A stretch of DNA of 64,000 bases from Cyanidioschyzon merolae (taxonomy: Eukaryota), in the NCBI GenBank assembly GCA_000091205.1, contig AP006499.2. One strand, 5' to 3'. The position numbers and the translations under genes were made by a program. A model generated the notes under the pieces. It worked only from the letters and a program-made list of their open reading frames with translations. It searched no databases and was not told where the DNA came from. Below, piece after piece: positions 3,842-54,416 of this stretch. Every line of letters begins with the position of its first letter. The stretch's first letter is position 1.

Positions 3842-6811
3842 GTGATGAGCACGGCTTGGACGCCACGAAGATCCCGTCGCTCAGGAGATCGTTTCATTCC
3901 CGTACGGGAACGTGACTCAGCGCTCGGACTTGACAGCACGCAACTGCGCTTTCAACTGCAGGTTGCAACAGAGCTTAGTTTTCAAGGTAGGAACACTCCA
4001 TCTCGAGACATTGCTGCTGAAAGTGAGAATAACGCCTCAGATGTGGGACAAGTGACCGAGTCCAGTCCGTCTCGGAGGCTACGAGACACGTCGCCGATGC
4101 ACCAGCGTCGGCTCTTGATGGCAGCTAGGGCACGCCACGTTGAGGGGAGCGAGGCGCTTGCGACTTTCGTTCCTGGCCACCAGATAGAGTCGGAACTAAG
4201 CCTGGCGCAGGCAGCCGAGCGGTATATTGAGAACGCACGGCGGGATTGGTCTGATATCTTCGGGGCTAGTCCAAGCGCTCCGGCACTACTGGTGTCAGGG
4301 TCAGAACGCGCTGGACAGCGCTCGCTGCAGTTAGAAACATCGCCTGATGCGGATGAGGGCACACTGACTTACCAAAGTCGCCTGGGTCGGAGCGTGAACG
4401 AGCCACCAGTGGAATCGTCTCGAGAGTCCGGCACGAGTCCGAATCGGGGTCTAGCGGCCGCAGAGCGCGCTGGAGTGCGAGCTGAGCTCGAGACCCTGCT
4501 TGCAACACTCTCTGTTGGCAGAGCGTCCGATGCACGTAATGGAGCATATGATGGGAGCGAGCGTCCAGCACGAACATCGCGGGCAGAGCAGCCCCCGGCA
4601 CGTCGTCAGAGCCGGCGTGAACGAGAGCTCGCGGATCTCCTGGAGCGCATGGACCGCGAGCAACGCGATGCAAACCACAGCGTCTCGTCGTCGTCCCGCA
4701 GTTCCACTGTAGAGCAAATCCGTGCTCTGCTACAGGCAGCAGCAGAGCTCGGTGATGCCGCTGATGACGTGGCGGTAGTTGATCTGGCAATGGAGCTTTT
4801 CGCGGACCCACGAGCGCTCTACTCAATGGAAACGCTTAGGGGAAGCGTTCAACACTTGGCAGGAACGCTCATGCGGGGTACATTGGCAAGCCCCGGAGGC
4901 ACCGGCATCTCGAGTCTCGCGCCTGGGATGCTTGCCACGGATGTGGGCAGCCGAGTCACAGAGCTTCAGGGCGTCATCACTTGGTCAGAGGGCGGTACCG
5001 TGACGCGTCCAGGCGCAGCAAACGCCAACGCGGTTCTGGCCCTGAGCGCTCATTTACCGCCGCATGCGCAACATGCTACGATCGAGTCAGCTACACGATC
5101 TGCGAACGAAGCTGCATACCTCACCCAGACCAGCGGAACCGGAGGTGCTGCACCGAATACTTCCACACCGGGGATTTCGCCGAGTACGACCGGGCGATTC
5201 GTTGTATCAGCGCCTGGTGGGCCATCCACGTACGCGATCATCCTGGAGAACGAATTGCTGCACGAGGTGAATACGACGCGCACTGAGCTCGCTACCGATA
5301 TGGATGCACTCGTTGCGGAGAATGAGAGTACATCGCCAACGGAACCACCACCGAGCGGCCGTCGTCCAGAACCCGGCTTTGGACTGGCCACGCCGCCCCG
5401 GCACTCGAATCCGACCCGAGCAACAAGAAACTCGCCAGTGGCCGCCTCGCCGGGAGCCAGCCACGTCTCGAGCTCGTCCGCGACACCAGTGGTCGCTCGT
5501 CGCAGCTTGCTGGAATTCTCTCGTCAGGATACCAGTGTGCATGAATCGAGCCCGTCGCCGCGTCATCGCCAGTACTCAGAGAATAACGGCTCACCGATTC
5601 GTCTCGATGCTTTGCGAACATCGCCTGTGCTTGCAGCGGATCCAACCATTGCTCGTCAACTTGGGCTTGGCCTGAGACGGAAACAGCGGAAAATAAGCAG
5701 AGTCCCCTTTAAGGTATTGGATGCTCCAAATCTCGCGGATGATTTCTACCTCAATCTGCTCGACTGGTCGGCCCGGAATATCCTCGCTGTTGGGTTGGGC
5801 AATTCCGTCTATCTATGGAACGCCTATAATTCCAAAGTATCCAAGCTGTGCGAGCTGGATACCCCGCCCCAAGGTGTCTGCTCCGTGTCGTGGGCACCGT
5901 CCGGTGACCTTATTGCTGTTGGGCTAGCCTCCGGGGTGGTCCATCTGTACGATCCGACACGCCAGGAGGCAGCCCAGATGCTAACCGGACACACGGCACG
6001 CGTCGGGTGTCTCGCCTGGAACGGGCCGCTGCTCGCAAGTGGCTCACGCGATCGCACGATCATGGAGCACGATGTTCGTGCGGGCAGAGAGCCAGTGCGA
6101 ACACTTGAAGCGCATCGCCAAGAAGTTTGCGGCCTGCGTTGGAGTTTCGACCAAACCCAACTCGCGAGCGGAGGCAACGATAACAAACTCTTCATCTGGA
6201 CACCGCAAGCGCGACGCCCGCTCTTTAGATTTGAAGAGCATGAAGCGGCAGTGAAGGCGGTGGCTTGGTCCCCGCACCAGCACTGTTTGTTGGCTAGCGG
6301 CGGCGGCACTGCGGATCGATGTATCCGTCTGTGGAACACAACCACCGGCTCCTTGCTCCAGTGCGTGGACACCGGATCCCAGGTTTGCAACCTGCTCTGG
6401 AGCCGCGCCGTCAACGAGCTCGTAAGTACCCATGGCTATTCCCAGAATCAGATTGTGCTTTGGCGATACCCGAGCATGCAAAAGGTGGTCACACTCACCG
6501 GACATTTGCTGCGTGTGCTGTACTTGGCTGCCAGCCCCGACGGTTCCGTTATAGTAACCGGTGCGGGCGATGAAACCTTGCGCTTTTGGAACGTTTTCCC
6601 GCCGCCACGAAGCGCTGCTCGCATGTCGCAACAACGAGCGGCCTCATCGTTGTCACCGTCGCGTCTGGGCGGGACGCGATCGCTGTACGCAGCGGCGTTG
6701 GCGGACCTCACGACGCTGCCGTCTGCGTACGCACCAACACCCAGTCAAGCGTCACCGATGCATGATCTCTGGAATACCAGCGCGATGATTCCGAGTTCAT
6801 TCATTCGTTGA
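3842..6811 (+). CDS. Cdc20/Cdh1 (Fizzy)-family APC/C co-activator with a ~600-aa low-complexity N-terminal extension
   Basis: There is a C-box 'DRFIPVR' at residues 16-22. There are seven WD40-like repeats from 'FKVLDAPNLADDFYLNLLDWS' onward. The C-terminus ends in a canonical IR tail, '...IPSSFIR*'. Residues 30-600 are Ser/Ala/Arg-rich low complexity. Confidence 0.8.
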   Translation: MMSTAWTPRRSRRSGDRFIPVRERDSALGLDSTQLRFQLQVATELSFQGRNTPSRDIAAESENNASDVGQVTESSPSRRLRDTSPMHQRRLLMAARARHVEGSEALATFVPGHQIESELSLAQAAERYIENARRDWSDIFGASPSAPALLVSGSERAGQRSLQLETSPDADEGTLTYQSRLGRSVNEPPVESSRESGTSPNRGLAAAERAGVRAELETLLATLSVGRASDARNGAYDGSERPARTSRAEQPPARRQSRRERELADLLERMDREQRDANHSVSSSSRSSTVEQIRALLQAAAELGDAADDVAVVDLAMELFADPRALYSMETLRGSVQHLAGTLMRGTLASPGGTGISSLAPGMLATDVGSRVTELQGVITWSEGGTVTRPGAANANAVLALSAHLPPHAQHATIESATRSANEAAYLTQTSGTGGAAPNTSTPGISPSTTGRFVVSAPGGPSTYAIILENELLHEVNTTRTELATDMDALVAENESTSPTEPPPSGRRPEPGFGLATPPRHSNPTRATRNSPVAASPGASHVSSSSATPVVARRSLLEFSRQDTSVHESSPSPRHRQYSENNGSPIRLDALRTSPVLAADPTIARQLGLGLRRKQRKISRVPFKVLDAPNLADDFYLNLLDWSARNILAVGLGNSVYLWNAYNSKVSKLCELDTPPQGVCSVSWAPSGDLIAVGLASGVVHLYDPTRQEAAQMLTGHTARVGCLAWNGPLLASGSRDRTIMEHDVRAGREPVRTLEAHRQEVCGLRWSFDQTQLASGGNDNKLFIWTPQARRPLFRFEEHEAAVKAVAWSPHQHCLLASGGGTADRCIRLWNTTTGSLLQCVDTGSQVCNLLWSRAVNELVSTHGYSQNQIVLWRYPSMQKVVTLTGHLLRVLYLAASPDGSVIVTGAGDETLRFWNVFPPPRSAARMSQQRAASSLSPSRLGGTRSLYAAALADLTTLPSAYAPTPSQASPMHDLWNTSAMIPSSFIR

Positions 6812-7178
6812 CTTGTGGATGCACCAACATCCAATCACGCGTCACCGATGCATGATCTCTGGAATACCAGCGCGATGATTCCGAGTTCATTCATTCGTTG
6901 ACTTGTGGATGCACCAACATCCAATCACGCGTCATCGATGCATGATCTCTGGAATACCAGCGCGATGATTCCGAGTTCATTCATTCGTTGACTTGTGGAT
7001 GCACCAACATCCAATCAAGCGTCATCGATGCATGATCTCTGGAATACCAGCGCGATGATTCCGAGTTCATTCATTCGTTGACTTGTGGATGCACCAACAC
7101 CCAGTCAAGCGTCATCGATGCATGATCTCTGGAATACCAGTGCGATGATTCCGAGTTCATTCATTCGTTGACTTGCGC
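6729..7178. repeat. 90-bp tandem repeat, 5 near-identical units, beginning inside the last 30 codons of the Cdc20-like CDS
   Basis: The unit 'gcaccaaca(c/t)cca(g/a)tca(a/c)gcgtca(c/t)cgatgcatgatctctggaataccagcgcgatgattccgagttcattcattcgttgacttgtggat' repeats at about 6729, 6819, 6909, 6999 and 7089. Each unit encodes '...SPMHDLWNTSAMIPSSFIR' plus a TGA stop. Confidence 0.9.
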
Positions 7179-8150
7179 AACACGTTCCGTGCATCGAGTC
7201 TGATGGCCTTGGTGAGCGATGCAAACGTTACAGGGCGCGGTTAGCATGCTTCTGAGCGTGCGTTCGTTCTGGACCGCAGTTCACTCCCTTGTGTTGGTCA
7301 AGGCCTTGCACGCTTTCCACTGCATCATAGCCCTGCTGCTATCAATATCGTTGCTTGGAACACACCCGTACTGATGTCCGTACTAATTCCCAGGCCGTAG
7401 GTAGCGCAGCGTCTGGAATGCTGGTTGGCAATGTGCATGCATTGTCGATGTTAGCGGGAACTCGTTTCGTTTCCAGTACACGATCAATAGATCAAACTGG
7501 AATTCCCGTGGAGCGTGATTGCATCGGGAACCAGGCTCCAGAGACTCGTGCTTTCTTCAATGATTGACGATCGAAGCGCCGAACCAGAATTCCTCGGTGC
7601 GCGATTGCGTCAGGAACATATAACCGATTTGCGCTAGCGTGGCGCCCTGCACGCAGCGCTCCACTAGGATCTGCAGCGCTCAGAGACTCGGTATCATGTG
7701 AGGAATGCATCCACGGCTGCTAGAACGCTCTGCGGTGCGAGCGGCGCTTGGCCGGCTGCGGCTACGACCTTTGGTGCCAACGCGCTGCCTCGTGTGTATG
7801 CCGGCGCTGCGCTTGAATTGCATCGATACTGTCGTTCTGGTTATGCGTCTTTGAGATGGATAAACCAGCGACCGTACGCTGTGTGACGCCTTGTGCATGA
7901 CCCTGGTGGAAGGATTTCGGATGCGCACCACGAAATAGTATGGAAAGTGTCATTCTGGCTATGCGCCCGTGATATATATGATCTAGCGCTCGTTTGCTGC
8001 ATCATACTCTTTACAAGACGTTGGTGGGCGGATTTTGACTGCACGCCGCTGCAGGGATTTTTCGCAGTCTTGGAGGCGCGCGAGCAGTCGCCTTGCCAGC
8101 AGTGCACACTGCCTGGTGCACATACGAGGGTTTTCTTGGGCGCCATGGGG

Positions 8151-10364
8151 TCACGTCACGTCCGCCAGAACCTGCAACAGTCGATCGAGGCGCACCAGGT
8201 TCTCCTCTGATTCGCCGGTATCTTTGCCCGTGAGGGTAGTCTCTCTGGCCATTTCCAACAACATGAGCGTCTTTTTCACTCCGAGGCGTTTTCCCGAGAG
8301 CGCTTCAATAGCCTTGTTGCGCTCTTTCTCGGAAGCGAATGCGAACCCAGAACCGCGCACCACACTTGCGACTTCCTCTGGTAACAGCCAGCTCGTCTGG
8401 AGACTAGCCTGAAAAGCCGACCGCAGCTCTAGCACATCAAGTACCTCGCTATTGCTCGTGGTGGCCACCACAAACAAACGTCGATTCGCAGGCGGGACTC
8501 GTTTCACCAGAACCAGCAACGACTGCACAACAAGGTTACTGAATCGCGGCCCGATGGGTGCATACTCCACGAGCCGCTCAATGTTATCGAGAACGATGAT
8601 GCTCAGCGACGAGCGATACGCATCCTCGAACGTTCTCGCAATCGCTGCAACCTTGGCCGGCTCACTGAACCCGACAAACTGTTCCGGCGCAATGAGGCGA
8701 ATAAAGGGAAAGTCGGATTCGATGGCTAGCTTGGCCGCCAAAGCGGTCTTGCCCGTGCCAGGTGCACCTTCAATGAGCAGCGTCATGAGAGGCGAGCGCT
8801 CCGCTTGTCGTACCTGATCACGAAAGAGGCGGCCGCTCTGCAAGAGGCGCTCCAATCGCGCCCCGTAATCAATAAAGCCTCCGACGAGACATCGTTGGAG
8901 CTCGTCCATGCTCACACCAAACGCAGGTCGTACTTCTTCCAGCGCTCGACGAAAGTCGTCCATACCGACGTAGACCGCATCGGGGTCTACGGGTTTCGTG
9001 ATCTGGTTCAGGTCAATGTGGCGATACAAAGCGTAGGCGGCTGCCGAGCGGCAGAGACCTTCGAGTTCTGCCCCGGAGTAGTTCCGGGTTTTCGCAGCGA
9101 GCTCCTCCAGTGATACGTCGTCGAGAAGCATTTTGTTTGCCCGCATTTTCGCAGTGTGAATTTGAAGGATCTGGAGGCGGCCCTGCTCGTCCGGTAAACC
9201 GATTTCGATATGTACTTCAAGTCGACCTGGGCGCAGTAACGCCTCATCAATCAGGTCTTTCCGATTCGTCATCCCTATGATCAAAATATTATTCAGTGCG
9301 TTCACACCATCGATCTTGCTCAAAAGCTGGTTCACGACGGTATCGTGGACGCCGGTCCCATCACGTTGGCTACCACGTTGTTTGCAGATTGCGTCAATCT
9401 CATCGAAGATGAGGATGTGCAGTTCGCTCTGATCACCATGGGCGAGGTAGTCGGCTTCGGCTTCTTTGAAGAGGTTGCGAATGTTCTCTTCGCTCTGTCC
9501 AACGTATTTATTGAGGATCTCGGGCCCGTTGACCACTTTGGGCTCCTTCCCGTTCAACATTTTGCCGATCTGTCGAGCGATCAGCGTTTTTCCGGTGCCT
9601 GGCGGACCGTGCAGCAGCATGCCACGCACGTGGCCAATACCGAGCTTCTGGATCACTGCTGGCGGGAAGACTCGGGACGCGAACGCCCGACGGAAGATGT
9701 CGGAAAACTCCTTGTCCAAACCGCCAATGCCCATGCGTTCAAAGTTAAAGTCTGCACGAAAGAGTTCGCGAGGCCGATTCTCGCTGCCACGAATACGTAC
9801 GTTCGCATCGCGAGCTCGCACGAAAAGGAAGCTGGTCTCTGCGCCGAGCATCGCCAACAGCGGCGAAACTGGCGTCGGTCGCCCGCCGTCTGGCGCGGCG
9901 GCCATCCCGTCCAGCCGGGCAGCAACTAGAAGCAACAGCGTGCCGTAGTAATCAAGCACCACTGACTGTCCTACGCTGATGACGAACGGCACCAGGCGTT
10001 TGCGTGCGAGTGCTTCGAGCTCGTCAGTGGACAACTCGGGAGCTGCCAGTGAACGTCGCTTCACCACAGTATCGATCTCAAAAGTCGCGGAAACGGCGTG
10101 ATGTGTGTCCTTGGTCAACGTGTAGGTGCGCACGGGCACCGCGTCGCCGAGGGCAAGCTGCAGCTCACGTCGCTGAACCGCGTTCAGACCAACGGTACCG
10201 CGCTCGACCGCAGCGTCCGCAGCGGTCGGGTACGCCCATTCCGTACCGAGAGTTACGAATGTAGCTTGCCTCAACTGTGCCAAGTCCTGGGGATGAAGGA
10301 AAACTCGGTTCGTTTTTGCCTGCTCTTGGCCGGGGCAGGCCGCGACGCGAAGCGTCAACGCCAT
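8151..10364 (-). CDS. NSF: N-ethylmaleimide-sensitive factor (vesicle-fusing AAA ATPase, NSF/Sec18)
   Basis: There is an NSF-N domain followed by two AAA cassettes. D1 contains 'GMLLHGPPGTGKTLIARQIGKMLNGKEPKVVNGPEILNKYVGQSEENIR...IFDEIDAICKQRG...GMTNRKDLIDEALLRPGRLEV', which is near-identical to metazoan and fungal NSF. D2 contains 'LIEGAPGTGKTALAAKLA'. Confidence 0.95.
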   Translation of the reverse strand: MALTLRVAACPGQEQAKTNRVFLHPQDLAQLRQATFVTLGTEWAYPTAADAAVERGTVGLNAVQRRELQLALGDAVPVRTYTLTKDTHHAVSATFEIDTVVKRRSLAAPELSTDELEALARKRLVPFVISVGQSVVLDYYGTLLLLVAARLDGMAAAPDGGRPTPVSPLLAMLGAETSFLFVRARDANVRIRGSENRPRELFRADFNFERMGIGGLDKEFSDIFRRAFASRVFPPAVIQKLGIGHVRGMLLHGPPGTGKTLIARQIGKMLNGKEPKVVNGPEILNKYVGQSEENIRNLFKEAEADYLAHGDQSELHILIFDEIDAICKQRGSQRDGTGVHDTVVNQLLSKIDGVNALNNILIIGMTNRKDLIDEALLRPGRLEVHIEIGLPDEQGRLQILQIHTAKMRANKMLLDDVSLEELAAKTRNYSGAELEGLCRSAAAYALYRHIDLNQITKPVDPDAVYVGMDDFRRALEEVRPAFGVSMDELQRCLVGGFIDYGARLERLLQSGRLFRDQVRQAERSPLMTLLIEGAPGTGKTALAAKLAIESDFPFIRLIAPEQFVGFSEPAKVAAIARTFEDAYRSSLSIIVLDNIERLVEYAPIGPRFSNLVVQSLLVLVKRVPPANRRLFVVATTSNSEVLDVLELRSAFQASLQTSWLLPEEVASVVRGSGFAFASEKERNKAIEALSGKRLGVKKTLMLLEMARETTLTGKDTGESEENLVRLDRLLQVLADVT

Positions 10365-37837: not shown

Positions 37838-39430
37838 TTATGCAGGTGAAATAGGACCCGTGCCGATGGAGTCAGGTGCCTTCGATTCTTGGGAAGCCGT
37901 CGTTCCGCTCGCGTCAAGCGATGCATCCACGGCCTCCAGCTCGGCTTCTGCGGCTGCTGCTGCGGAGGCGACCTGCTCCAGGCGCGACGTCGAGTTGCCA
38001 CCTTGGTTGCGGTGCAATCGCTTGGCCGCCTGGTTACGCTCCGCTTGCGCTCGGCGAATGAAGGAGTTAAAGCGATTCTTCACCGCATTGTCGGTACGTC
38101 CCTGCAGCATCCGTGCTATCTCACTCCAGCGATTTCCTAGACGAGCATGGGCTGAGATAATAATCCTATCTTCCTCGGGGGTCCAAGGACGCTTGCAAAT
38201 CTGTGGCGAGAGCTGGTTCAACCAGCGTTCTCGCGCTTGCTTGCCGGTTCGGCCTGGGATGTGCTCAGCGATGAGCGACCATCTTCGAGGCCCCATCTTT
38301 TCGACCAGAGACCGCAGCAGTTCATCTTCTTCGGGACGCCACGGCCCTTTGACCTCTTTTCGCTCACTGACCCGGCGTGCTGACGGAGTGCTCTGCACCT
38401 GGGCGCGATTCGACGGTGTCGAGCTGACATCAGGGCTCGAACGCTTGCTCTCGGATGACACCCGCGACAAGGTGTCGGGCCAGACGCGCGGCTCCTCGCC
38501 TGGTGACCAGCACCGCCACATCGCCACCGGCTCAGGTTGTATAAGGGAACCCTGCGCCAAGTGTGCATTGGTTGTCGTGAAACTGTCCACTGGCGTGCCC
38601 GATGGAGCACTCTTCATCGCGCCCATCTTGGGGGTGTCCGTGTCCGAAACCGGCGAATGCCTTATCGGCATGCTAGCGCATCTGGCGAGCTGAGCGCCAG
38701 CAACGCGTTCATTTTCCAAACCAATGCAAAAGAGAGGCGCTTGTTTCTCAGAAATGGCGGCAAAGGTCCCATCTGACCCAGGGTTTCCCCAGACAAGGTC
38801 GCTCCCGGTAGTATTCGTGGGTATCGCTCGCCGGCCCGCTGCTGCGCCAGAGCCAGGGCGGGAAACCGCACCCGCATCCTCGAGCTTCGTCACGACTCCC
38901 TCCAAACGCCGCAAGCATACGCTGTTCTCTGGAGTTGCACTCGCGTTTACATAGTTCAAGTTCGGCGACGAACTCCGAGACTCTGACAGAGCCGCAGCCC
39001 AGAACAGAAGCTCCAACCCCGAAAACCGCGAGTTGGAACGCTCATTCCCAGCTACCGCCTCCGCGCGTTGCTCGTGCTCCTCTCCCAACGCCACGCTCTG
39101 CTCACACGAAACGTTCCACTCGTTCATAGCCTCAAGCATCAGAACACGTTCAAGCGTTACGAACAAGTGGCTGCGCTCGAGGTGCACGCGTCGTTCAGCG
39201 TCAGCTCGTGGAGCGCGAACGGCATCTACCGTTGCGCGGCCGCGGCCGCCGGCCGGCGGCCGGCGATGCGCGCACGTAGACGCTGTTGCGTTTGTGCGTG
39301 CGCGTTTGTGCGTGCGCGTTTGTGCGTGCGCGTTTGTGCGTGCGCGTTTGTGCGTGCATGACGTGCAATGCGGGAGAGCGTGCGTGCGTGCGCGCGCGCG
39401 CCTTTCAAGACCGGCCCATGCGGATCGCAT
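37838..39430 (-). CDS. R2R3-MYB DNA-binding transcription factor
   Basis: The C-terminal '[101 protein letters not shown]' forms two SANT/Myb repeats. The ORF's first ~100 codons run through a 16-bp microsatellite, so the true start is probably the internal Met near 39139. Confidence 0.8.
39288..39362. repeat. 16-bp tandem repeat (gcgtttgtgcgtgcgc) x about 4.5
   Basis: 'gcgtttgtgcgtgcgcgtttgtgcgtgcgcgtttgtgcgtgcgcgtttgtgcgtgcgcgtttgtgcgtgcatg'. It generates the periodic '[14 protein letters not shown]' peptides seen in several ORFs. Confidence 0.9.
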
Positions 39431-43273: not shown

Positions 43274-46200
43274 TCAAGAGCGTCCCAGTACCATGGAGAG
43301 CAACGCCATACGTACGTACATACCGTACTCCATCTGACGAAAGTAAACAGCCCGAGGATCTGAATCGACTTCAGGTGCGATTTCATTGACTCGTGGCAGC
43401 GGGTGCATGACAATCATGGTGTCCTTGGCACGAGTCAGCGTCCGCGGAGTGATCACGTAGAAGGCGTTGAAACGCTCGTAATCACCGGGGTCTGCAAATC
43501 GTTCACGTTGCAGGCGGGTCATGTACAGCACATCCGTTTCCGCAAGGCAGTCTTCGAGGTTCGTGTACTCCCGCTGTTCGATGCCTCGCGTGGCGACTTC
43601 TTCGAGAACCTGGCTCGGCATGCGCAGTTCGCGCGGTGACACATAGTTAATGCGTACTTGATAGAGGGCTAACAGGCGCGCCAGGGAGTGCACCGTGCGC
43701 CCGTTCCGCAAATCACCGACAAATGTAATCACGAGGCCGTTCACGGTACCGAGCTCCTCGCGAATGGTGAACACGTCCAGCAAAGCCTGGGTCGGGTGCT
43801 CGCCGGTCCCGTCGCCGGCATTGATGAGGGGCGTTTTCGGAAGCGCCTGGGCTGCTCGCTCCGCAGCACCCGCTTCGGGATGTCGCAGCACGACAGCGTC
43901 GGCGTAGGATGCCATGGTCCGCACCGTATCCAAGAGCGATTCGCCCTTGGCCACCGATGATGACTGCAAGTCGTTCATTTGGATGACGGTTCCGCCGAGT
44001 CGCTGCATGGCAGCGGCGAAAGAACACGAGGTGCGCGTGCTCGGCTCATAAAAGACGAGTGCGAGAACGCGACCACGCAACAAATCCAGCATGCCCATGC
44101 GATTCACCATCTGGCGCATCTCCTGTGCAACACCGAAAAGCGCATGCAACTCCGCCCGGCTGAACTGCGACACCGATAGAATGCTCTGGTGACGCAGGAG
44201 ATCGCGTTGGGCAGACGAGCCGGCTGGCACCGATACTGGTGCCGGTAATGATGTCTGGTAATGGGGCCAGCCAGGTTGCGGCGAAGCTGCCTGCCAGCTG
44301 CGTCGAACAAGCGGCACATCTACGGGAGCGCAGCTAAAGGAATCGAGCGGACGCGGTTCTAGAAGCGTCGATCGATTCGCCTTGGTTGATGGCATCCATG
44401 AGCGATTTGCAACCGAAACACGCGGAAAATTGACCATGTCGAGCTGGCGAGCACGCTGCTCGACGGCCGCCCGGGCACGGTCGATATCAGCGGTCGAGTC
44501 GTCCGTGGTCACAGCTGCAACAGCGCTTTCCACCGGAAGCGTTGCAGGTCTGAAGCTTGGGCGCACGCTCGACGCCGCGCGTGCGTTGCGTACGTCGGGC
44601 GCTGAAGGGAGAGCAGGCTGAGCAGGCACTGCGCCAACCACGGTATCCTCTGCAGTCGCGGTCGCAGTCTCCGTCGCGGATTCCAGGAGATCGTGACCAG
44701 CGCCCGCTTCTAGCAAAACCTTGTCATCAAGGTACGCGATGCGCTTGCGAACGACAACGCGCAACACTCGGCCTCGCAGTTGGTACGCCTTCTCGTTGGA
44801 ATCACCGTCCGCCGGTACGAAGCGCTCCGTCTGATCAATATCGACCTCGACATAGGTATCCGCATGAGCGGAGCTACCCGCTGGCGCAAGACCGAGGAAG
44901 CTGCGCGGAAACTCCACGAGTCGACTCAGGAGCCAGGTCATGGTCAGACGTCCGCGGTGCACCGCCTCGAGTAAGAGGCCAAGCACCAGACGTGGTGATC
45001 CCGTCACCGTGTCAATCGCATCCAGAGCGTCCCAGAGCGCGTCGACATCGCGCTGTTCCAGCTCGTGCTGCAGTGCATCGCCGCAGAGATCCTCGACGCG
45101 CACATCGCAGGTCACTGGAATGCCGCGCTCTTTTGCACTACGGATGAGGGCGATGTCCTCGCGGCGACGAACGGCATGGATGTGAATCGGCCGCGCATAC
45201 AGCACTGCACCGAACAGCATCGCCGAGAGCGCTTGGGTGCTGCTGGTGTGTAAAATCACCGGCTTGTGCCGAGGCCAGAGCTCCAAATGACGCAACCATG
45301 GCGTAAGGTTCTCACGGAGTGGCGCCTGATCGGCGCTCACGGCATTTGTTGCTGCTGCCGATGCTGCTGCTCGTCGATGGATCATGGGTTCCGTATTGTC
45401 TAGCGCGATGAAGAGACCGGCCACCTCGTTTGCCAAACTGGGCAAAGTCGCTGCGTTCGCCGCTGTTGCGTAGGCATAGATTGCATGGTCACAGCGTCCC
45501 CAGCGCGCAAGCTGCTCGCGCACAGTGCGCAAGGTTTCCGATTCAGCGACCAGGAAATCGGGTGCAACAGCGGCACCGACCCAGGCAACGTAGCCTCCGC
45601 GCAGCAGCTGTCGATCGAAATCGTCCAGTAGTGCACACAGCCTCGCATCCGCGGCTGCGTTCCGCTTTGGATGTTGGTCGCCGTTCATCAGCGGCGACTC
45701 GGGGTCGCACCGATCACCATTCGGAGCTGCGAAAGGCTCATGCTCAAGTCGCGATGTGCACATGTTCACCAGGCCCGGTAGAGTGATCACTCGGGCACTG
45801 AAACGAACATCGTACGGCTGCAGAGGCAACGAGACGCCACGTCCGTAGCGCGCAAGCGCACGAACCAACAGTTTCGCGCACTTGATATTCGTGAGCAGAG
45901 GAATACTGAAATCTACGGCTGTCCGTCGGCTAATGTAGCCGTTGCTCATGAATGTGGCTACCCGTCGAAGCTTGTTCTGCGAAGGTAAGTTGATGAAAAA
46001 ATCAATCATCTTGTCCTGAATCAAGCGCGTAACGTCGAGCGTGCCCTGTTGGTACTCGTCTGAGGGCCAGACGACCAGCGTGCACGGCACGTTGTGCTCC
46101 ACCAAAAAATCTGCTGTTCCCGGCGTTGCGTACAGACGATAGCCAATGGCAGCGAGTTTCTTCGCAGACTCGAGAAATTCCAGTTTCTCTTTGTACGAGC

Positions 46201-49200
46201 CGATGCTCAGACAAATATTCCGCTGTGGTAAGCGAATGCCGGCTGCTCGTAGTCCCTTGAGATACGCTTCTTCGCGGCTCTCTCCAAAACAGGCAACCTC
46301 ACCGGTGCTGGCCATTTCGACGCCGAGAATCGGATCTGCACCCAGCAGCCGCGCAAAAGAGAACATGGCCACTTTGACGCCAACGTGCGGTACGGTGGAA
46401 ATATCGACAGGATACGGCTGCACAGTCAGACCGAGCATGACTTTGGTGGCCATTTTTGCGAGGTCCAGGCCTATGGTTTTGCTTACAAATGGAAAACTGC
46501 GGCTTGCACGAATATTGCATTCAATAACCTTGATTTCGTTGTTCTTGGCAATGAACTGCAGATTCATCGGCCCTGAAACGTTCAGGGCGTTGGCTATCTT
46601 TCGCGTCGCATCCTCTAGTTTGCGAACGGTCTCAGGTTCCAGGTCCTGTGCCGGTAACACCAACGTCGCATCGCCCGAGTGCACGCCAGCGTTCTCGACA
46701 TGCTCGCTAATGAAATGGACGACCAGCTCCCCGTTGCGTGCCACTGCATCCACATCGATTTCTTTGGCCTCTAGAATGAATTTGGAAATGACCACGGGAT
46801 GCTCACGAGACACCCGCGCAGCCTCGGAGAGATAGCGCTCCAGGTCCTCCTCTTTGTAGGCTACATTCATCGCTGCACCAGAGAGCACATAACTCGGACG
46901 CACTAGACAGGGATAGCCCACGGAATCGCAAAAGGCCGCAGCGTCAGCGATGGAGGTCAACTCCTTCCAGCGGGGCTGATCAACCCCAATGCGATCCAGC
47001 ATGCGACTGAATTTGTAGCGATTCTCCGCGGAATCGATCATCTCTGGAGAGGTGCCCAGCACGTGTACACCTTGGCGATGCAACGACATGGCAATGTTGT
47101 TCGGGATCTGACCCCCCATTGAGACGATCACCCCATCGACTGCCTCTCGCTCACAAATATCCAGCACCCGCTCGAAAGAGAGCTCTTCAAAGTACAAGCG
47201 ATCGCATTCGTCGTAGTCAGTGCTGACGGTTTCCGGATTGTAATTCATCATGATGGTACGCGTGCCTTTTGCACGCAGCGCTCGAACTGCTGCGACCGCG
47301 CACCAGTCGAATTCAACCGAGGAACCGATGCGATAGGCGCCACTGCCAAGTACAATGATGCCACCGAATCGCGCACTGACGTCATGAGCACCTTGACTGC
47401 CTGCGTAGGTCGCATAGAGGTAATTCGTTTTGGCGGGAAACTCCGCGGCCACTGTATCAATCTGTTTGATATTCGGGACAATGCCGTACTCCTTGCGGAG
47501 CTTGCGAATCTCCAGTTCCGTATTGCCAACGAGTCGCCCGATCTGTCGGTCGGAAAACCCGAGTTGTTTTGCCGCACAGAGCAGATCCGCAGTGAGCCAG
47601 TTTTCCGAACCAGTGTTCATGGCATTCGCCGCTAATCTCTCCAGCGTCTGTTCGAAGCGGGTAATGCGCGCGAGCCGCATGAGAAACCACCGATCAATCT
47701 GGGATTTCTCGTGAATCTCTTCGACGCTGTGGCCACTGGCTAGCCCAGAGGCGATGGCGAGAATGCGGGCTTCGGTGGGCGTCTGCATCTCTTCGTCACT
47801 GTAGGGTTCCACGTCGCGTTCGAAACCGTTCACGTAATAATCACGCACCATGCGAATGGCTTTCTGGATCGTCTCCTCAAAATTCCGCCCAATGGCCATA
47901 GCCTCCCCGACGCTCTTCATCGAGGAGCCCAGTTGTCGATTCACGCGCTCGAATTTTTTCAAATCCCAGCGCGGCATCTTCACCACGATATAGTCGAGAC
48001 TTGGTTCAAAACATGCTGTCGTCTCTTGGGTGATGGAGTTCCGGATGGCCGGCAGGGCGCGGCCCAAGGCCAGTTTCGCGGCAACGAACGCTAGCGGATA
48101 GCCAGTTGCCTTGCTCGCCAGCGCCGATGAACGCGACAAGCGTGCATTCACCTCTATGATGCAGTATTCGCGCGAGTTCGGATTCAACGCGAACTGGATA
48201 TTGCACTCGCCAACGACGCCAAGATGGCGGACGGTCTTGATTGCGGAGTTGCGTAGCATCTGATATTCCGCATCGGACAGAGTCTGCGACGGTGCCACCA
48301 CGATCGATTCGCCGGTGTGGACACCCAACGGATCGAAGTTCTCCATGTTGCAAACGGTAATGCAGTTGTCGTACGCATCTCGCACCACCTCGTACTCGAT
48401 TTCTTTCCAGCCCTTCATCGAGCGCTCTACCAGGAGTTGCGGTGAACATGACAAGGCTTTGCTGGCGAGCTGCCTCAGTTCCTGGGCGTTATTGGCGAAA
48501 CCGGAGCCGAGACCCCCCAGGGCGAATGCCGCTCGAACGATGACTGGGTATCCGATGCGCTCGGCCTCAGTGATGGCCTGTTCCACAGAGGCGGCCGTAG
48601 CAGAACGGGCGAACGGCTCTCCGATCTCTGCGAGACGCTTGTTGAAAAGCTCTCGATCCTCTGTATCCATGATCGTTTCCACGGGGGTGCCCAGGACTCG
48701 GATTCCATTTTCCTGGAAAAAGTTGCGTTTTTGCAGCTCAATACCACAGTTCAAGGCGGTCTGGCCTCCAAATTGTAAGAAAATACCGTCTGGCCGTTCG
48801 TTCTCCGCAATGCGCATCACCGATTCTGGATCGATCGGCAAGAAGTAGACCTTGTCGGCGAGTCCTCCCGTGGTTTGCACCGTGGCAATATTCGGATTGA
48901 TAAGAACTGAATAGATGCCCTCCTGTTTCAGGGCCTTAATAGCCTGCGAACCTGAATAATCAAACTCTCCGGCTTGGCCGATGGACAGGCCTCCCGAGCC
49001 CAGCACCAGTACTTTGCGGATCGATTTATCCGACGCTGGGCATGCGCCCGTTGCGGCTAAACGCTGTGGCGCTGGCGGGGGTTGTTTCGTTCGCATCATC
49101 TCGACAAAGAGGTCGAAAAGAAACTCGGTATCACAGGGTCCAGCGCGCGCTTCCGGGTGAAACTGCACCGAGAACGCAGGTTTCTTTCGGTGAATAATGC

Positions 49201-50284
49201 CTTCATTGGATCCGTCATTCGCATTCGTGAAGTAGGGTTCCCAGCCTGGTGCCAAGCTGTTCGTGTCCACCGCATAGCCGTGATTCTGGGAGGTGATATA
49301 ACAACGACCGGTGCGCTCATCGATGCACGGTTGATTGTGGCCACGGTTGCCGTACTTGAGTTTGTAGGTCTGTGCTCCCGCCGCCAGGGCCAGCAATTGA
49401 TGACCGAGGCAAATGCCGAAAACAGGTCGCTCCTCAGATAGCCATTGCTGAATATTGCGAATGGTCTCCAGCACCATCGTAGGATCACCCGGACCGTTCG
49501 AGATAAAAAGACCATCACAAGAGCGATATTTGTCGGCGTTAATGTCTTCATCCCAGGGTACTACGGTCATGCGACAGTGCCGACGCGCCAGGCACCGCAA
49601 CTGGTTGTACTTCAGACCGCAGTCCACAGCTAGCACATGATACCGGGCATCGGGCGCTCCGTACTCGTACGGCTGCTTGCAAGAAACCTGTGCAACGAGG
49701 TTAAGGCGATTCGGGTCTATAAATGCTTGGTCTTCATTACGATCGTCTTCAAGTACGATCCGTCCAAGCATAGAGCCATGCTCCCGAATCTTTTGCGTAA
49801 CAAGTCGGGTATCGATCCCACATATGCCTGGAACTTGCTGTTCCTGAAGCCATTCTCCAAGCGATTGCTTCGCCAGCCAGTGCGAGTATTCCTGCTCGTA
49901 GTTTAGAACGACGAGACCGGCAGCGTGAATGCGCGCAGCCTCAAAGTGCAACGGAAGGCCGTACGCGTCGCGCTCCGACATGGACGGAACTCCGTAGTTT
50001 CCCACCAGAGGATACGTGAAGACGATGATCTGTTGACAGTAGGATGGATCGCTTAGGGTTTGCTCATAACCGACCATACCGGTTTGGAAAACAACTTCAC
50101 CAGCAACAGAACGAGCAGCTCCGAAACTCCAACCCTCGAAAACGCTTCCGTCTGCAAGTTCCAGCCTTGAACGACGCTTTCCTGCGTCGGTCAAGAGGCC
50201 CGGCACCTGCAGCTCAAGATCCTGCGCTCCATAGGAAGCATCACCCTGAATTGTGGTCATGGTGCAGCCCTCAAGACAAGACAA
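43274..50284 (-). CDS. Multifunctional pyrimidine-biosynthesis protein: GATase, CPSase large chain, degenerate DHOase-like domain, ATCase (URA2/CAD-like)
   Basis: The small-chain region carries GATase 'VFGICLGHQLLALAAG'. The CPSase large chain runs from 'KVLVLGSGGLSIGQAGEFDYSGSQAIKALKQEGI' through two ATP-grasp halves and an MGS-like domain. The ATCase C-terminus carries 'STRTSCSF', 'GEHPTQALLD' and 'HPLPR'. It is a single 2336-codon ORF with no intron. Confidence 0.95.
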   Translation of the reverse strand: MSCLEGCTMTTIQGDASYGAQDLELQVPGLLTDAGKRRSRLELADGSVFEGWSFGAARSVAGEVVFQTGMVGYEQTLSDPSYCQQIIVFTYPLVGNYGVPSMSERDAYGLPLHFEAARIHAAGLVVLNYEQEYSHWLAKQSLGEWLQEQQVPGICGIDTRLVTQKIREHGSMLGRIVLEDDRNEDQAFIDPNRLNLVAQVSCKQPYEYGAPDARYHVLAVDCGLKYNQLRCLARRHCRMTVVPWDEDINADKYRSCDGLFISNGPGDPTMVLETIRNIQQWLSEERPVFGICLGHQLLALAAGAQTYKLKYGNRGHNQPCIDERTGRCYITSQNHGYAVDTNSLAPGWEPYFTNANDGSNEGIIHRKKPAFSVQFHPEARAGPCDTEFLFDLFVEMMRTKQPPPAPQRLAATGACPASDKSIRKVLVLGSGGLSIGQAGEFDYSGSQAIKALKQEGIYSVLINPNIATVQTTGGLADKVYFLPIDPESVMRIAENERPDGIFLQFGGQTALNCGIELQKRNFFQENGIRVLGTPVETIMDTEDRELFNKRLAEIGEPFARSATAASVEQAITEAERIGYPVIVRAAFALGGLGSGFANNAQELRQLASKALSCSPQLLVERSMKGWKEIEYEVVRDAYDNCITVCNMENFDPLGVHTGESIVVAPSQTLSDAEYQMLRNSAIKTVRHLGVVGECNIQFALNPNSREYCIIEVNARLSRSSALASKATGYPLAFVAAKLALGRALPAIRNSITQETTACFEPSLDYIVVKMPRWDLKKFERVNRQLGSSMKSVGEAMAIGRNFEETIQKAIRMVRDYYVNGFERDVEPYSDEEMQTPTEARILAIASGLASGHSVEEIHEKSQIDRWFLMRLARITRFEQTLERLAANAMNTGSENWLTADLLCAAKQLGFSDRQIGRLVGNTELEIRKLRKEYGIVPNIKQIDTVAAEFPAKTNYLYATYAGSQGAHDVSARFGGIIVLGSGAYRIGSSVEFDWCAVAAVRALRAKGTRTIMMNYNPETVSTDYDECDRLYFEELSFERVLDICEREAVDGVIVSMGGQIPNNIAMSLHRQGVHVLGTSPEMIDSAENRYKFSRMLDRIGVDQPRWKELTSIADAAAFCDSVGYPCLVRPSYVLSGAAMNVAYKEEDLERYLSEAARVSREHPVVISKFILEAKEIDVDAVARNGELVVHFISEHVENAGVHSGDATLVLPAQDLEPETVRKLEDATRKIANALNVSGPMNLQFIAKNNEIKVIECNIRASRSFPFVSKTIGLDLAKMATKVMLGLTVQPYPVDISTVPHVGVKVAMFSFARLLGADPILGVEMASTGEVACFGESREEAYLKGLRAAGIRLPQRNICLSIGSYKEKLEFLESAKKLAAIGYRLYATPGTADFLVEHNVPCTLVVWPSDEYQQGTLDVTRLIQDKMIDFFINLPSQNKLRRVATFMSNGYISRRTAVDFSIPLLTNIKCAKLLVRALARYGRGVSLPLQPYDVRFSARVITLPGLVNMCTSRLEHEPFAAPNGDRCDPESPLMNGDQHPKRNAAADARLCALLDDFDRQLLRGGYVAWVGAAVAPDFLVAESETLRTVREQLARWGRCDHAIYAYATAANAATLPSLANEVAGLFIALDNTEPMIHRRAAASAAATNAVSADQAPLRENLTPWLRHLELWPRHKPVILHTSSTQALSAMLFGAVLYARPIHIHAVRRREDIALIRSAKERGIPVTCDVRVEDLCGDALQHELEQRDVDALWDALDAIDTVTGSPRLVLGLLLEAVHRGRLTMTWLLSRLVEFPRSFLGLAPAGSSAHADTYVEVDIDQTERFVPADGDSNEKAYQLRGRVLRVVVRKRIAYLDDKVLLEAGAGHDLLESATETATATAEDTVVGAVPAQPALPSAPDVRNARAASSVRPSFRPATLPVESAVAAVTTDDSTADIDRARAAVEQRARQLDMVNFPRVSVANRSWMPSTKANRSTLLEPRPLDSFSCAPVDVPLVRRSWQAASPQPGWPHYQTSLPAPVSVPAGSSAQRDLLRHQSILSVSQFSRAELHALFGVAQEMRQMVNRMGMLDLLRGRVLALVFYEPSTRTSCSFAAAMQRLGGTVIQMNDLQSSSVAKGESLLDTVRTMASYADAVVLRHPEAGAAERAAQALPKTPLINAGDGTGEHPTQALLDVFTIREELGTVNGLVITFVGDLRNGRTVHSLARLLALYQVRINYVSPRELRMPSQVLEEVATRGIEQREYTNLEDCLAETDVLYMTRLQRERFADPGDYERFNAFYVITPRTLTRAKDTMIVMHPLPRVNEIAPEVDSDPRAVYFRQMEYGMYVRMALLSMVLGRS
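44590..45670 (-). other. DHOase-like linker domain of the CAD-like protein, apparently catalytically dead (approximate bounds)
   Basis: It is alignable to CAD DHOase, for example 'WPRHKPVILHTSSTQALSAMLFGAVLYARPIHIHAVRRREDIALIRSAKERGIPVTCDV' against '[58 protein letters not shown]'. The metal-binding HxH is lost ('LVNMCTS' against 'IDVHVHL'). The DHAPH site is also lost ('DTVTGSPRL' against 'DCFASDHAPH'). Confidence 0.5.
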
Positions 50285-50470: not shown

Positions 50471-51080
50471 GCGATTGCGGACATGCTTCTAGACCATGGT
50501 GAAATGCAGATATCATTAGATACAGGTATATAGGTGTATATATGCAATTGTGGATATGCTTCTAGACCATAGTGAAATGCAGATATCATTAGATACAGGT
50601 ATATAGGTGTATATATGCAATTGCGGATATGCTTCTATACAATGGTGAAATGCAGATATCATTAGATACAGGTATATAGGTGTATATATGCAATTGCGGA
50701 TATGCTCCAGAGACAATGGTGAAATGCAGATATCATTAGATACAGGTATATAGGTGTATATATGCAATTGCGGATATGCTTCTATACAATGGTGAAATGC
50801 AGATATCATTAGATACAGGTATATAGGTGTATATATGCAATTGCGGATATGCTTCTATACAATGGTGAAATGCAGATATCATTAGATACAGGTATATAGG
50901 TGTATATATGCAATTGTGGATATGCTTCTAGACCATGGTGAAATGCAGATATCATTAGATACAGGTATATAGGTGTATATATGCAATTGTGGATATGCTT
51001 CTAGACCATAGTGAAATGCAGATATCATTAGATACAGGTATATAGGTGTATATATGCAATTGTGGATATGCTTCTATACT
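50471..51080. repeat. 73-bp minisatellite, ~8 tandem units, immediately upstream of the CAD-like gene start
   Basis: The unit 'atgcttctagaccatggtgaaatgcagatatcattagatacaggtatataggtgtatatatgcaattg(c/t)ggat' starts at 50483, 50556, 50629, 50702, 50775, 50848, 50921 and 50994. Variants include tagaccatag / tatacaatgg / cagagacaatgg. The array is AT-rich relative to its surroundings. Confidence 0.9.
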
Positions 51081-52730: not shown

Positions 52731-54416
52731 ATGAGCCCCTATTGCTCCTCTTCGAATATCGACGCTGCATATCTAAAAAAGCTGGGAGAAAAAATCGAAA
52801 AGCAGGGACAGAGCGCACGTCGCAGTGTGTTCCATTTTAGGCCACCGTGGGTGTCGCGTCAACCTGGAAGCGCAGAAAACGTGCGACCAGCAACCAAGTG
52901 CACATCAAGTCAACACTGCCGAAGGAGCGCTCTGATTATGACGGATGGAGGCTGTGGGCTTGGCATTGCCTACCAGCAGGGTATACCTGGCAAAGTTTGG
53001 CGACAACAGGGTGCTGACGCTGCACTGGCCTGCGAGTTGGCTGCGGGTACCGTAGGCGTCCGAAGACGGACGCAACGTCGTCTCAACACGTACCGAGTCT
53101 TCCGTGCAACTCGCCGAAAAGCGCGCACAAGCTTTCATACGACAGGTACCAGCTCTGATTCGTCCGGGGGAACGCTCAAACCGAGCGTCTCTGCAACAGC
53201 GCTCGGTCCGATCCTCGGAAAGTGTGCGCTGCCTCAAAGCGCCCGCGTGCTCATAACTGGCGGCACTGGCTGCATCGGCAGCTACGTTATCGCGGAGTTA
53301 CTTCTCCACACGAATTACACGCTCGAGTTGATCGTTCGAGGTGGTGCACAGCGTTTCCTCTCCGTGTCTGATGAGCGTTTTCGGTTCAGTTTTCAACAGA
53401 GGCGCATACGCGTGCACGACGTCGACCTGGCAAGCGCTGCGGACCTGCAGAGCGAACGGATGCAGCAACTCGTCGGTACCTGTGATGCTCTTGTCCTCTG
53501 TGCGGCATCCTGGGGCGGGGATACCGCCAAAGCTGTGAATGTGGACGCCGTGCTCTCCCTGCTGCACGCTTCGAGTCGCCAGCACCGATGCCGCCATGTC
53601 GTCTATTTCGCTACAGCGTCAGTCGTTTCTCCGCAGGGCAAAGTGCTTCTGGAAGAAGCTTTACAATGGGGCACCGAATACATTCAGAGCAAGGCTATTG
53701 CAGTCATCAGACTCCTCGACACCTTGCAATGCATGGATAAACCGGTCCCGACCACGATTCTGTTCCCGACTCTGGTGCTTGGGCCCACGAGTCATCTGGG
53801 CACAGCGTTCCGTGCAAGCTCCCCAGCAGCATTACGTGATTCACCGTTGTATCGTGCAGGGAAGCATGTGCTTCGTTTCCTCAGTGTCGACTCCAGGGTG
53901 CGTGCACACTTTATCCATGCTGCGGACTGCGCCCAGATCGTACGACTGGTCCTCCAAGGAGCCTCGTCCACGACGCGTGCTCTGTCGATAGCGCATGACA
54001 CCGGCGGGAATGTTTTCAAGCCAGTCCAGCGAAATGGATACGCGCTTCCTCTTCAGTGTTTTGTGGTGGGCCAGGAACCACCCTTCTCCTTTGACGACGC
54101 TGTGCACGCTCTGTGTCGACTCTATGGACTCGTGATTCCCATGCGATGGCTACGCATTCCGGCTGATCCGCTGTTGTGGCTCATGGCTCATGGGTGGATA
54201 CCAGTCGATGCGTGGACGCGCTTCTGCTTGCGTCGACGTCGAGAGCTCTTCCTGTTCCCGCAGGCAGTTCGACCGGAGGATTTGGGCGGCACATCTGTCG
54301 CACCGGATCTGTATACAGCGTTACAGCGTTGCATGATTCCGTCGAGGGAGGCAGTGGGTTGGATGGAGCGCGATCCCGAAAAGCGCACCACGAGCCAAGT
54401 CATGCGTTTTGGGTGA
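52731..54416 (+). CDS. NAD(P)-binding Rossmann-fold protein of the extended-SDR / epimerase-dehydratase-like family
   Basis: There is a glycine-rich loop 'VLITGGTGCIGSYVIAELL' and a downstream 'YIQSK' (YxxxK). An N-terminal ~150-aa extension precedes the Rossmann fold, so the start is uncertain. Confidence 0.55.
   Translation: MSPYCSSSNIDAAYLKKLGEKIEKQGQSARRSVFHFRPPWVSRQPGSAENVRPATKCTSSQHCRRSALIMTDGGCGLGIAYQQGIPGKVWRQQGADAALACELAAGTVGVRRRTQRRLNTYRVFRATRRKARTSFHTTGTSSDSSGGTLKPSVSATALGPILGKCALPQSARVLITGGTGCIGSYVIAELLLHTNYTLELIVRGGAQRFLSVSDERFRFSFQQRRIRVHDVDLASAADLQSERMQQLVGTCDALVLCAASWGGDTAKAVNVDAVLSLLHASSRQHRCRHVVYFATASVVSPQGKVLLEEALQWGTEYIQSKAIAVIRLLDTLQCMDKPVPTTILFPTLVLGPTSHLGTAFRASSPAALRDSPLYRAGKHVLRFLSVDSRVRAHFIHAADCAQIVRLVLQGASSTTRALSIAHDTGGNVFKPVQRNGYALPLQCFVVGQEPPFSFDDAVHALCRLYGLVIPMRWLRIPADPLLWLMAHGWIPVDAWTRFCLRRRRELFLFPQAVRPEDLGGTSVAPDLYTALQRCMIPSREAVGWMERDPEKRTTSQVMRFG

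Follow-up and report, generated by a model that had tools for sequence, protein, structure and literature searches.

Results

A Cdh1-type co-activator gene whose end is tandemly repeated

The window, a 64,000-nucleotide stretch of contig AP006499.2 (assembly GCA_000091205.1), comes from Cyanidioschyzon merolae, a model red alga with a very repeat-poor genome. The features discussed below are as follows.

3845-6811, + strand: intron-less coding sequence (CDS) of a predicted Cdh1/CCS52-type APC/C co-activator, 988 aa plus TGA (ORF list, Pfam)
3887-3907, + strand: C-box DRFIPVR, residues 15-21 (read off the translation)
5717-6589, + strand: CDC20/Fizzy WD40 propeller, residues 625-915 (Pfam, profile positions 1-292 of 292)
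6803-6811, + strand: IR tail Ile987-Arg988 and the TGA in use, 6809-6811 (translation, family comparison)
6731-6820, + strand: array unit 1, the only translated unit, type C-G-A-C-C, comprising residues 963-988, TGA, CTTG and the filler TGGAT (6816-6820)
6821-6910, + strand: array unit 2, type T-A-C-C-C, silent TGA 6899-6901, filler 6906-6910
6911-7000, + strand: array unit 3, type T-A-C-T-C, silent TGA 6989-6991, filler 6996-7000
7001-7090, + strand: array unit 4, type T-A-A-T-C, silent TGA 7079-7081, filler 7086-7090
7091-7175, + strand: array unit 5, 85 bp, type C-G-A-T-T, silent TGA 7169-7171
8151-10364, - strand: convergent neighbor, NSF-like AAA ATPase, 737 aa

An exact-sequence look-up identified the CDS product as the C. 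merolae 10D protein BAM82128.1/XP_005538164.1, with no differences between them. The 988-aa protein matched Pfam family PF24807 (WD40_CDC20-Fz; E 1.6e-126), and its best PDB match was human FZR1/Cdh1, at 456 bits compared with 337 bits for human CDC20. The C-box is the established APC/C-binding motif of this family. With a seven-bladed CDC20/Fizzy-type propeller, a C-box that fits DR[F/Y]IPxR, a terminal Ile-Arg and a closer match to Cdh1 than to Cdc20, the protein is predicted to be an APC/C co-activator of the Cdh1/CCS52 type, which narrows the Cdc20/Cdh1-like assignment of the earlier note. One CDC20 gene and one CCS52 gene have been reported in C. merolae (PMC3095333). The gene is not mentioned in a paper on cell-cycle expression.

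The C-terminus was compared with a family set obtained by exhaustive HMMER search, in which 120 of 133 representatives end in [ILVM]R and 71 of 133 in IR; the C. merolae protein ends in ...SSFIR, and its terminal IR corresponds to the conserved motif by which these co-activators dock on the APC/C. It resembles Cdh1, Fizzy-related and CCS52 co-activators such as human FZR1 (PDB 4ui9 chain R) in its C-box, CDC20-Fz WD40 propeller and C-terminal IR. Unlike these relatives, it carries a long N-terminal extension of about 600 aa ahead of the propeller, and its tail beyond the propeller is 73 aa long, whereas the median tail among 107 relatives measures 27 aa.

Architecture of the array

Tandem Repeats Finder (TRF) reported a single array at 6731-7175, with a period of 90, 4.9 copies, 97% matches, no indels and a score of 827. 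Allowing at most one mismatch, the window contains five instances of a 59-nt core of the unit, and none turned up in 100 dinucleotide-preserving shuffles. The array starts at codon 963 of the 988-aa CDS, exactly on a codon boundary (6731-3845 = 2886 = 3 x 962), and each unit is 30 codons long and in phase with the CDS. Translated in that frame, the array reads APTPSQASPMHDLWNTSAMIPSSFIR*LVD followed by four further copies, each with FIR* at its end ('...IPSSFIR' plus TGA). The copies differ in a few residues: copies 3-5 have ASSMHD instead of ASPMHD, and copies 2-4 have PTSNH or PTSNQ instead of PTPSQ. These results agree with the earlier description of five near-identical 90-bp units that begin inside the CDS, each exactly 30 codons, in frame and carrying tail and stop, and with its reading of the IR tail as followed by four silent, here untranslated, copies. 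Its definition of the unit as the last 30 codons plus stop has to be corrected, however: a unit holds the final 26 codons (residues 963-988), TGA and nine bases (CTTG + TGGAT), and the last unit is only 85 bp long. Unit 5 lacks the 5-bp junction and joins the original 3' flank (CGCAACACG...) directly.

No open frame crosses the array on either strand. The CDS frame contains a stop in each unit, as do the other two plus-strand frames and all three minus-strand frames, and open stretches on the minus strand reach at most 29 codons. Between the Cdh1 stop and that of the AAA ATPase lie 1340 bp, which exceeds by 4 x 90 the 979-980 bp of single-copy haplotypes. Because the array sits between two convergent genes, no promoter is affected. 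Elsewhere in the window, TRF found a minisatellite of 73 bp x 8.2, indicating that similar arrays are present elsewhere in this genome, and a further array with a period of 14. A bacterial promoter/terminator scan gave nothing beyond chance, its models being bacterial and inapplicable to a eukaryotic host.

Copy number varies among natural haplotypes

We compared the window with 30 independent environmental contigs carrying the locus, drawn from JGI, ENA and Logan assemblies; among the samples, Ga0078972 is a Yellowstone metagenome. The contigs diverge from the window by 0.10-0.45% in the CDS (99.5-99.9% identical) and by 0.5-1.6% in the 3' intergenic region. In 27 of them a single unit is directly adjoined by both original flanks. 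The other three contain a unit-to-unit junction, with two units in L012, at least two in L027 and at least three in L022, all of which are minimum counts, since arrays may be collapsed or interrupted in short-read assemblies; both L027 and L022 terminate within the array. The reference assembly of strain 10D, from which the window is taken, has five units. Array copy number is therefore polymorphic (1, 2, at least 2, at least 3 and 5 units), as the earlier note had predicted when it proposed a long-read test for such polymorphism.

Three of the 27 single-copy contigs bear names of the form k141_..., the form that MEGAHIT gives to contigs when its final k is 141. A 141-mer covers flank, 85-bp unit and flank, so that the source molecules of these contigs were truly single-copy. 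Collapse of longer arrays into single-copy contigs was ruled out by these three k = 141 assemblies, by the exclusively ancestral unit types and by the complete lack of junction k-mers.

A common junction and shuffled unit variants

Every junction consists of the 85-bp duplicated segment and the 5-bp filler TGGAT, and this is so in all array-bearing contigs, pointing to one shared origin. Neither flank contains the filler, and a search of the surrounding sequence gave no template for it; the closest 9-mers lie more than 500 bp away and occur at chance frequency. Nor was microhomology found at the duplication breakpoints. Single-copy units are of type C-G-A-C-C in 25 and C-A-A-C-C in two of the 27 contigs. 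The distal T variants are missing from all 27, which makes the single copy the ancestral state, and unit 1 of the window has the single-copy allele sequence, identical to the lone unit of contig L001.

Seven unit types were seen, and all four gametes occur at five of the ten site pairs, which indicates either exchange between units or recurrent mutation. If translated, the silent copies would carry an amino acid change at four of the five variant sites. Ser967Asn was observed in the coding unit of four contigs, and exchange could carry variants from silent copies into the coding copy. Pairs of units show as many as 4 differences over 85 sites (about 5%), compared with 0.5-1.6% between haplotypes in the adjacent intergenic DNA. 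This excess requires either a raised rate of mutation or conversion within the array, which is usual in minisatellites, or an array older than it appears.

Folding and transcription

The RNA fold of the whole array had a z-score of -4.82, with none of 100 shuffles as stable, but this value is inflated by repetition: single units scored -0.84, -1.84 and -1.38, and the single-copy context scored +0.25. Each unit contains an imperfect hairpin. DNA folding of the units and junction was unremarkable (z -0.7 to -1.7), and a search of 6400-8300 against Rfam at a permissive E-value returned a chance match alone (Xist_exon1, E 0.8). Transcript-like contigs L022 and L027 extend from the 5' UTR into the array and others span the whole intergenic region, the sample type being taken from their appearance. 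The extra copies are probably part of the 3' UTR.

Discussion

The array is very probably a young, copy-number-variable minisatellite (VNTR) that lies astride the Cdh1 stop codon. Like minisatellites in general, it has head-to-tail units within the range of about 10-100 bp, a copy number that differs between populations, and interspersed variant repeats with signs of exchange between units. An 85-bp segment (the last 26 codons, TGA and four bases of the 3' flank) would have been tandemly duplicated once, with five extra bases, TGGAT, inserted at the junction. The resulting two-unit array would then have grown and shrunk through replication slippage, unequal sister-chromatid exchange or gene conversion, and may in this way have reached five units in strain 10D, where unit 1 alone is translated and the remaining units add 360 bp downstream of the stop. 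As the duplicated segment includes the stop codon, the protein is unchanged and the event was tolerated. Both this route and the neutrality of the array are probable, the latter judging from the absence of coding or structural constraint on the extra units.

We considered whether the repeats might instead act in the 3' UTR as a regulatory or structural RNA, with protein- or RNA-binding sites or a stability element and with copy number tuning Cdh1 expression. The stable fold of the whole array, the hairpin in each unit and the two transcript-like contigs that suggest transcription would fit such a role, and 3'-UTR VNTRs can influence expression in other organisms. The stability is no greater than composition predicts once single units are considered, however, and the repeats match no Rfam family. 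Unit sequences are also not conserved among copies, and any such function must be dispensable, as 27 of 30 environmental haplotypes lack the extra copy altogether. We therefore regard this role, which the earlier note had raised, as unlikely. Still less probable is that the array was selected as a fail-safe in which spare in-frame tails secure the IR terminus after unequal exchange or UGA read-through. With the array, read-through of the TGA at 6809-6811 adds 30 residues and again ends in FIR* (...SSFIR), whereas on a single-copy allele it adds 27 residues and ends in ...RLACF*, without IR; UGA followed by C, the context of the Cdh1 stop, is comparatively leaky in eukaryotes, and the period is a multiple of three. 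Yet the basal rate of read-through normally stays far under a few percent, so that the selective benefit would be tiny, and single-copy alleles, the majority in nature, are never exposed to unequal exchange. Moreover, non-synonymous changes build up in the silent copies. Since the period is simply 85 bp plus a 5-bp filler, it had a prior chance of 1 in 3 of being divisible by three, and the window's other arrays show periods of 73 and 14. The earlier note had called this a self-healing 3' end. In-register exchange does keep the frame and the IR terminus, but only because the duplicated segment holds the stop codon; with most haplotypes lacking the array and four of five variants non-synonymous, the special function implied by that term finds no support. 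The preservation of frame and IR is a by-product of geometry, without selected function. That the array is non-neutral in some way, through a read-through-proof IR tail and/or a 3' UTR lengthened by 360 bases that alters Cdh1 dosage, has in our view only a very slim chance of being true.

An error in the reference assembly, either in the array itself or in its five-unit length, might be suspected given that nearly all other assemblies have one copy. The same junction, GACTTG-TGGAT-GCACC, nevertheless occurs in three independent assemblies from other samples and on different haplotypes, and the five units differ at five sites, as spurious read duplication would not produce. A single Sanger read is long enough to span the 445-bp array. 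The reference genome was built from Sanger shotgun reads with BAC finishing (PMC1955436). The existence of the array as an assembly artefact, the possibility that the earlier note wished to see checked, is refuted, and an artefact of any kind at this locus is exceedingly improbable.

The minisatellite at the Cdh1 stop has partial counterparts in several known systems. Human SLC6A3 (DAT1) has a 40-bp VNTR in its 3' UTR, and the two loci share head-to-tail units, tens of bases long, downstream of a stop, varying copy number and reshuffled, interspersed variants. Unlike the SLC6A3 repeat, the C. merolae unit was recently copied from the coding end of the gene itself together with its stop, the array starts inside the CDS, and it is short (1-5 units), with most haplotypes unduplicated. 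Yeast cell-wall genes such as FLO1 reportedly contain in-frame intragenic tandem repeats, a finding attributed to Verstrepen et al. in 2005; here too unit lengths are divisible by three, and recombination between units alters copy number while leaving the frame intact. In FLO1-type genes, however, all units are translated and copy number alters the protein and the phenotype, whereas in C. merolae each unit has a stop and the protein stays constant at 988 aa. Filler DNA marks the junctions of tandem duplications that arise through end-joining repair, and the C. merolae array is similar in having a short insertion, TGGAT, that comes from neither flank, and breakpoints without microhomology. It departs from such duplications in that the filler has no nearby template and that the later increase from two to five units needs a homology-driven process.

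A literature search turned up no prior description of this array, nor of stop-codon-spanning duplications as a class. The locus reveals no new mechanism: it is an ordinary VNTR in an unusual position and no designed feature of the gene. Carried within the duplication, the stop codon hides the event from the protein, which explains how a duplication of this kind is able to survive in the 3' end of a cell-cycle gene that is probably essential. If the array were non-neutral after all, natural populations would possess in its copy number a heritable and rapidly mutable means of tuning mitotic exit. As it stands, the locus is of modest practical value as a VNTR marker for distinguishing C. merolae strains and natural populations: its size suits PCR, its alleles differ in steps of 90 bp, and the units provide internal variant maps. 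Reshuffling among the unit variants, together with the mosaic structure of the flanking haplotypes, hints that recombination is still going on in those populations.

The array lies at the 3' end of a Cdh1-type gene

The 988-aa product of the array-bearing gene exactly matched a Cyanidioschyzon merolae 10D protein, BAM82128.1 / XP_005538164.1, named 'WD-repeat cell cycle regulatory protein'. The Cdc20/Cdh1-like identity proposed in the earlier note was borne out by a CDC20/Fizzy propeller matched over its full length (PF24807, E 1.6e-126), a C-box (DRFIPVR, residues 15-21) and a C-terminal Ile-Arg (IR). The match to human FZR1/Cdh1 is far better than that to CDC20 (456 vs. 337 bits), and the gene is of the Cdh1/CCS52 type. 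One CDC20 and one CCS52/Cdh1 gene have been reported for C. merolae (PMC3095333). Among the best 133 representatives of at most 1000 aa from an exhaustive HMMER search, the last two residues are IR in 71 and [ILVM]R in 120, so the terminal IR is the conserved docking motif. The tail between propeller and IR (residues 916-988) is long: it has 73 aa, where the median of 107 family representatives is 27 aa and just 9 of them reach 60 aa. About 600 aa of low-complexity sequence lie N-terminal to the propeller. The next gene, an NSF-like AAA ATPase, is on the opposite strand, placing the array between two convergent genes.

Features of the locus
3842/3845..6811, plus strand, uninterrupted ORF of the Cdh1-type gene
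6590..6808, plus strand, propeller-to-IR tail
6731..7175, tandem array
8151..10364, minus strand, NSF-like AAA ATPase gene

Tandem Repeats Finder reported one array here (period 90, 4.9 copies, 97% matches, no indels, score 827), and a 59-nt unit core occurred five times at no more than one mismatch vs. never in 100 dinucleotide-preserving shuffles. The array begins within the ORF at the first base of codon 963, which makes every unit an in-phase stretch of 30 codons; the translation reads ...APTPSQASPMHDLWNTSAMIPSSFIR*LVD, followed by four more copies, every one ending FIR*. These results confirmed the earlier picture of five in-phase units starting inside the CDS, with the functional tail followed by four silent copies. 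The description of each unit as the last 30 codons plus stop held for length and phase, but the content is only the last 26 codons, TGA and nine further bases. Unit five measures 85 bp, and copies 2-5 depart from copy 1 at five positions. In the remaining frames of both strands stops occur in every unit, so the array encodes no repetitive protein.

Copy number is polymorphic among natural haplotypes

A 90%-identity cluster of the Cdh1 protein held 12 members from JGI, ENA and Logan assemblies, and we compared 30 loci, 29 from contigs of cluster members and one from a junction scan. Divergence from the window was 0.10-0.45% in the CDS and 0.5-1.6% in the 3' intergenic region, which identifies the loci as independent haplotypes of the same species. 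Exactly one unit, directly adjoined by both original flanks, was present in 27 of the 30; the stop codons of the two genes lie 979-980 bp apart in these contigs and 1340 bp apart in the window, which is longer by 4 x 90 bp. Three of the 27 have k141_... names; under MEGAHIT naming, a k141 contig spans flank-unit-flank only if single-copy molecules exist.

The unit-to-unit junction, diagnostic of at least two copies, was found in three independent contigs: L012 with two units, L027 with at least two (the contig ends within unit 2) and L022 with at least three (it ends in the second junction). L012 contains ambiguous bases (n), one just before the array (9747) and three at variable sites of the CDS, which suggests a consensus from a mixed population, so its two units are to be read as a lower bound. 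A single Sanger read is long enough for a 445-bp array. Sanger shotgun sequencing, finished with the help of BACs, underlies the reference assembly (PMC1955436). As an explanation for the existence of the array, an assembly artefact is refuted, since the diagnostic junction recurs in three independent contigs; five is the reference-assembly count in 10D. We conclude that the array exists and that, as had been predicted, it is polymorphic in copy number, with 1, 2, at least 2, at least 3 and 5 units seen at the same locus. At L017 (3001..5163), the source's gene call for Cdh1 (P0030) is 720 aa vs. 988 aa elsewhere, which a frameshift, another choice of start or a faulty assembly may explain.

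Ten contigs (L001, L006-L010, L016, L018, L020, L030; 6.4-6.7 kb), each from a different JGI sample, have nearly the same ends: one lies 102-169 nt upstream of the Cdh1 start codon, the other 166-463 nt past the start codon of the convergent NSF gene. They also rank high in their own assemblies for their length. They look like metatranscriptome assemblies of two 3'-overlapping convergent mRNAs; if they are transcripts, the Cdh1 and NSF mRNAs overlap or abut over the entire 980-bp intergenic region. JGI metagenomes and metatranscriptomes came from work at Yellowstone on a 'C. merolae 10D-like' alga (PMC11662350), and Ga0078972, among the samples used here, is a Yellowstone metagenome (PMC8986864). 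The 5' ends of L022 and L027 lie 48 and 86 nt ahead of the Cdh1 ATG; both contigs break within the array and share a sample series with L001 and L010; if they too are transcripts, the array would be transcribed contiguously with the CDS.

A single founding duplication and exchange between units are likely

Comparison with single-copy L001 showed that the duplicated segment is exactly 85 bp, GCACCAACA...TGACTTG, and that every junction holds five additional bases, TGGAT, matching neither flank. The breakpoints share no microhomology, and we found no template for this filler nearby. The filler is identical in 10D, L012, L022 and L027, which argues for a single founding duplication, followed by copy-number changes. 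As the period is 85 + 5, that it is a multiple of three is most simply put down to a 1-in-3 chance; the remaining two arrays of the window repeat every 73 and 14 bp. Of the single-copy contigs, 25 have a C-G-A-C-C unit and 2 a C-A-A-C-C unit. The T variants of the distal units are absent from all 27, on which ground we rejected the reading of these contigs as collapsed arrays; the single copy is instead the ancestral state.

Unit types in order, as bases at the five variable sites
10D (window): CGACC-TACCC-TACTC-TAATC-CGATT
L012: CAACC-CGACC
L022: CGACC-TAATT-...
L027: CAACC-TAAT...

All four combinations were seen at 5 of 10 site pairs, a pattern typical of minisatellites that arises when units exchange sequence or when mutations recur. 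Divergence between units reaches about 5% vs. 0.5-1.6% between haplotypes in the adjoining non-coding DNA, a point that the favored explanation, a variable-number tandem repeat (VNTR), does not fully cover. Elevated mutation or conversion inside minisatellites would account for it, and the array could also be older than its rarity suggests.

Across the flanks (window 3877..8067 vs. L001-L030), 18 variable sites left of the array and 24 right form mosaic combinations among contigs; the window is nearest L012-L014 in the CDS but nearest L002 in the 3' intergenic region. Either natural C. merolae-like populations recombine, then, or some of the consensus assemblies are chimeric.

Other repeats in the window
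50474..51076, AT-rich minisatellite, 73 bp x 8.2, 96% matches, in the divergent intergenic region between a 2336-aa ORF (43274..50284, minus) and an ORF at 52731..54416 (plus)
39288..39372, perfect 14-bp repeat (GCGTTTGTGCGTGC) x 5 with a degenerate 28-bp extension, in a very GC-rich stretch close to the 5' end of a mechanical ORF (37838..39430, minus)

The 73-bp array adds a second and larger tandem array to a genome that has been called very repeat-poor.

The array is most simply read as a neutral or nearly neutral VNTR

Of the five variants, four would be non-synonymous (P966S, S967N, Q968H, P971S) and one synonymous, which indicates that the silent copies are free of coding constraint. Ser967Asn occurs in the translated unit of L012, L027, L028 and L029, so the C-terminal linker is itself polymorphic. 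Such variants could reach the protein by exchange within an array, which speaks against the suggestion of a 'self-healing' 3' end.

The suggestion of a regulatory or structural 3'-UTR element fared no better, and we consider it unlikely. The whole array folded better than shuffles (z -4.82), but this reflects one weak hairpin counted five times: single units gave z -0.84, -1.84 and -1.38, and the unit in its single-copy context +0.25. DNA folding was equally unremarkable, Rfam returned no match for the array, the extra units are absent from most natural haplotypes, and the convergent arrangement leaves no promoter nearby. We give even less credence to a selected fail-safe. One point speaks for it: read-through of the UGA-C stop would yield a product again ending FIR*, whereas that of the single-copy allele would end ...RLACF*. 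Against it, few natural haplotypes have the array, its silent copies are decaying, and read-through at basal levels is normally very low.

A neutral or nearly neutral VNTR is thus the simplest reading. On this view the array is tolerated because the duplicated segment carried the stop codon along and left the protein unchanged. The array is an ordinary VNTR that happens to straddle a stop codon, and its main use would be to mark strains or populations of C. merolae.
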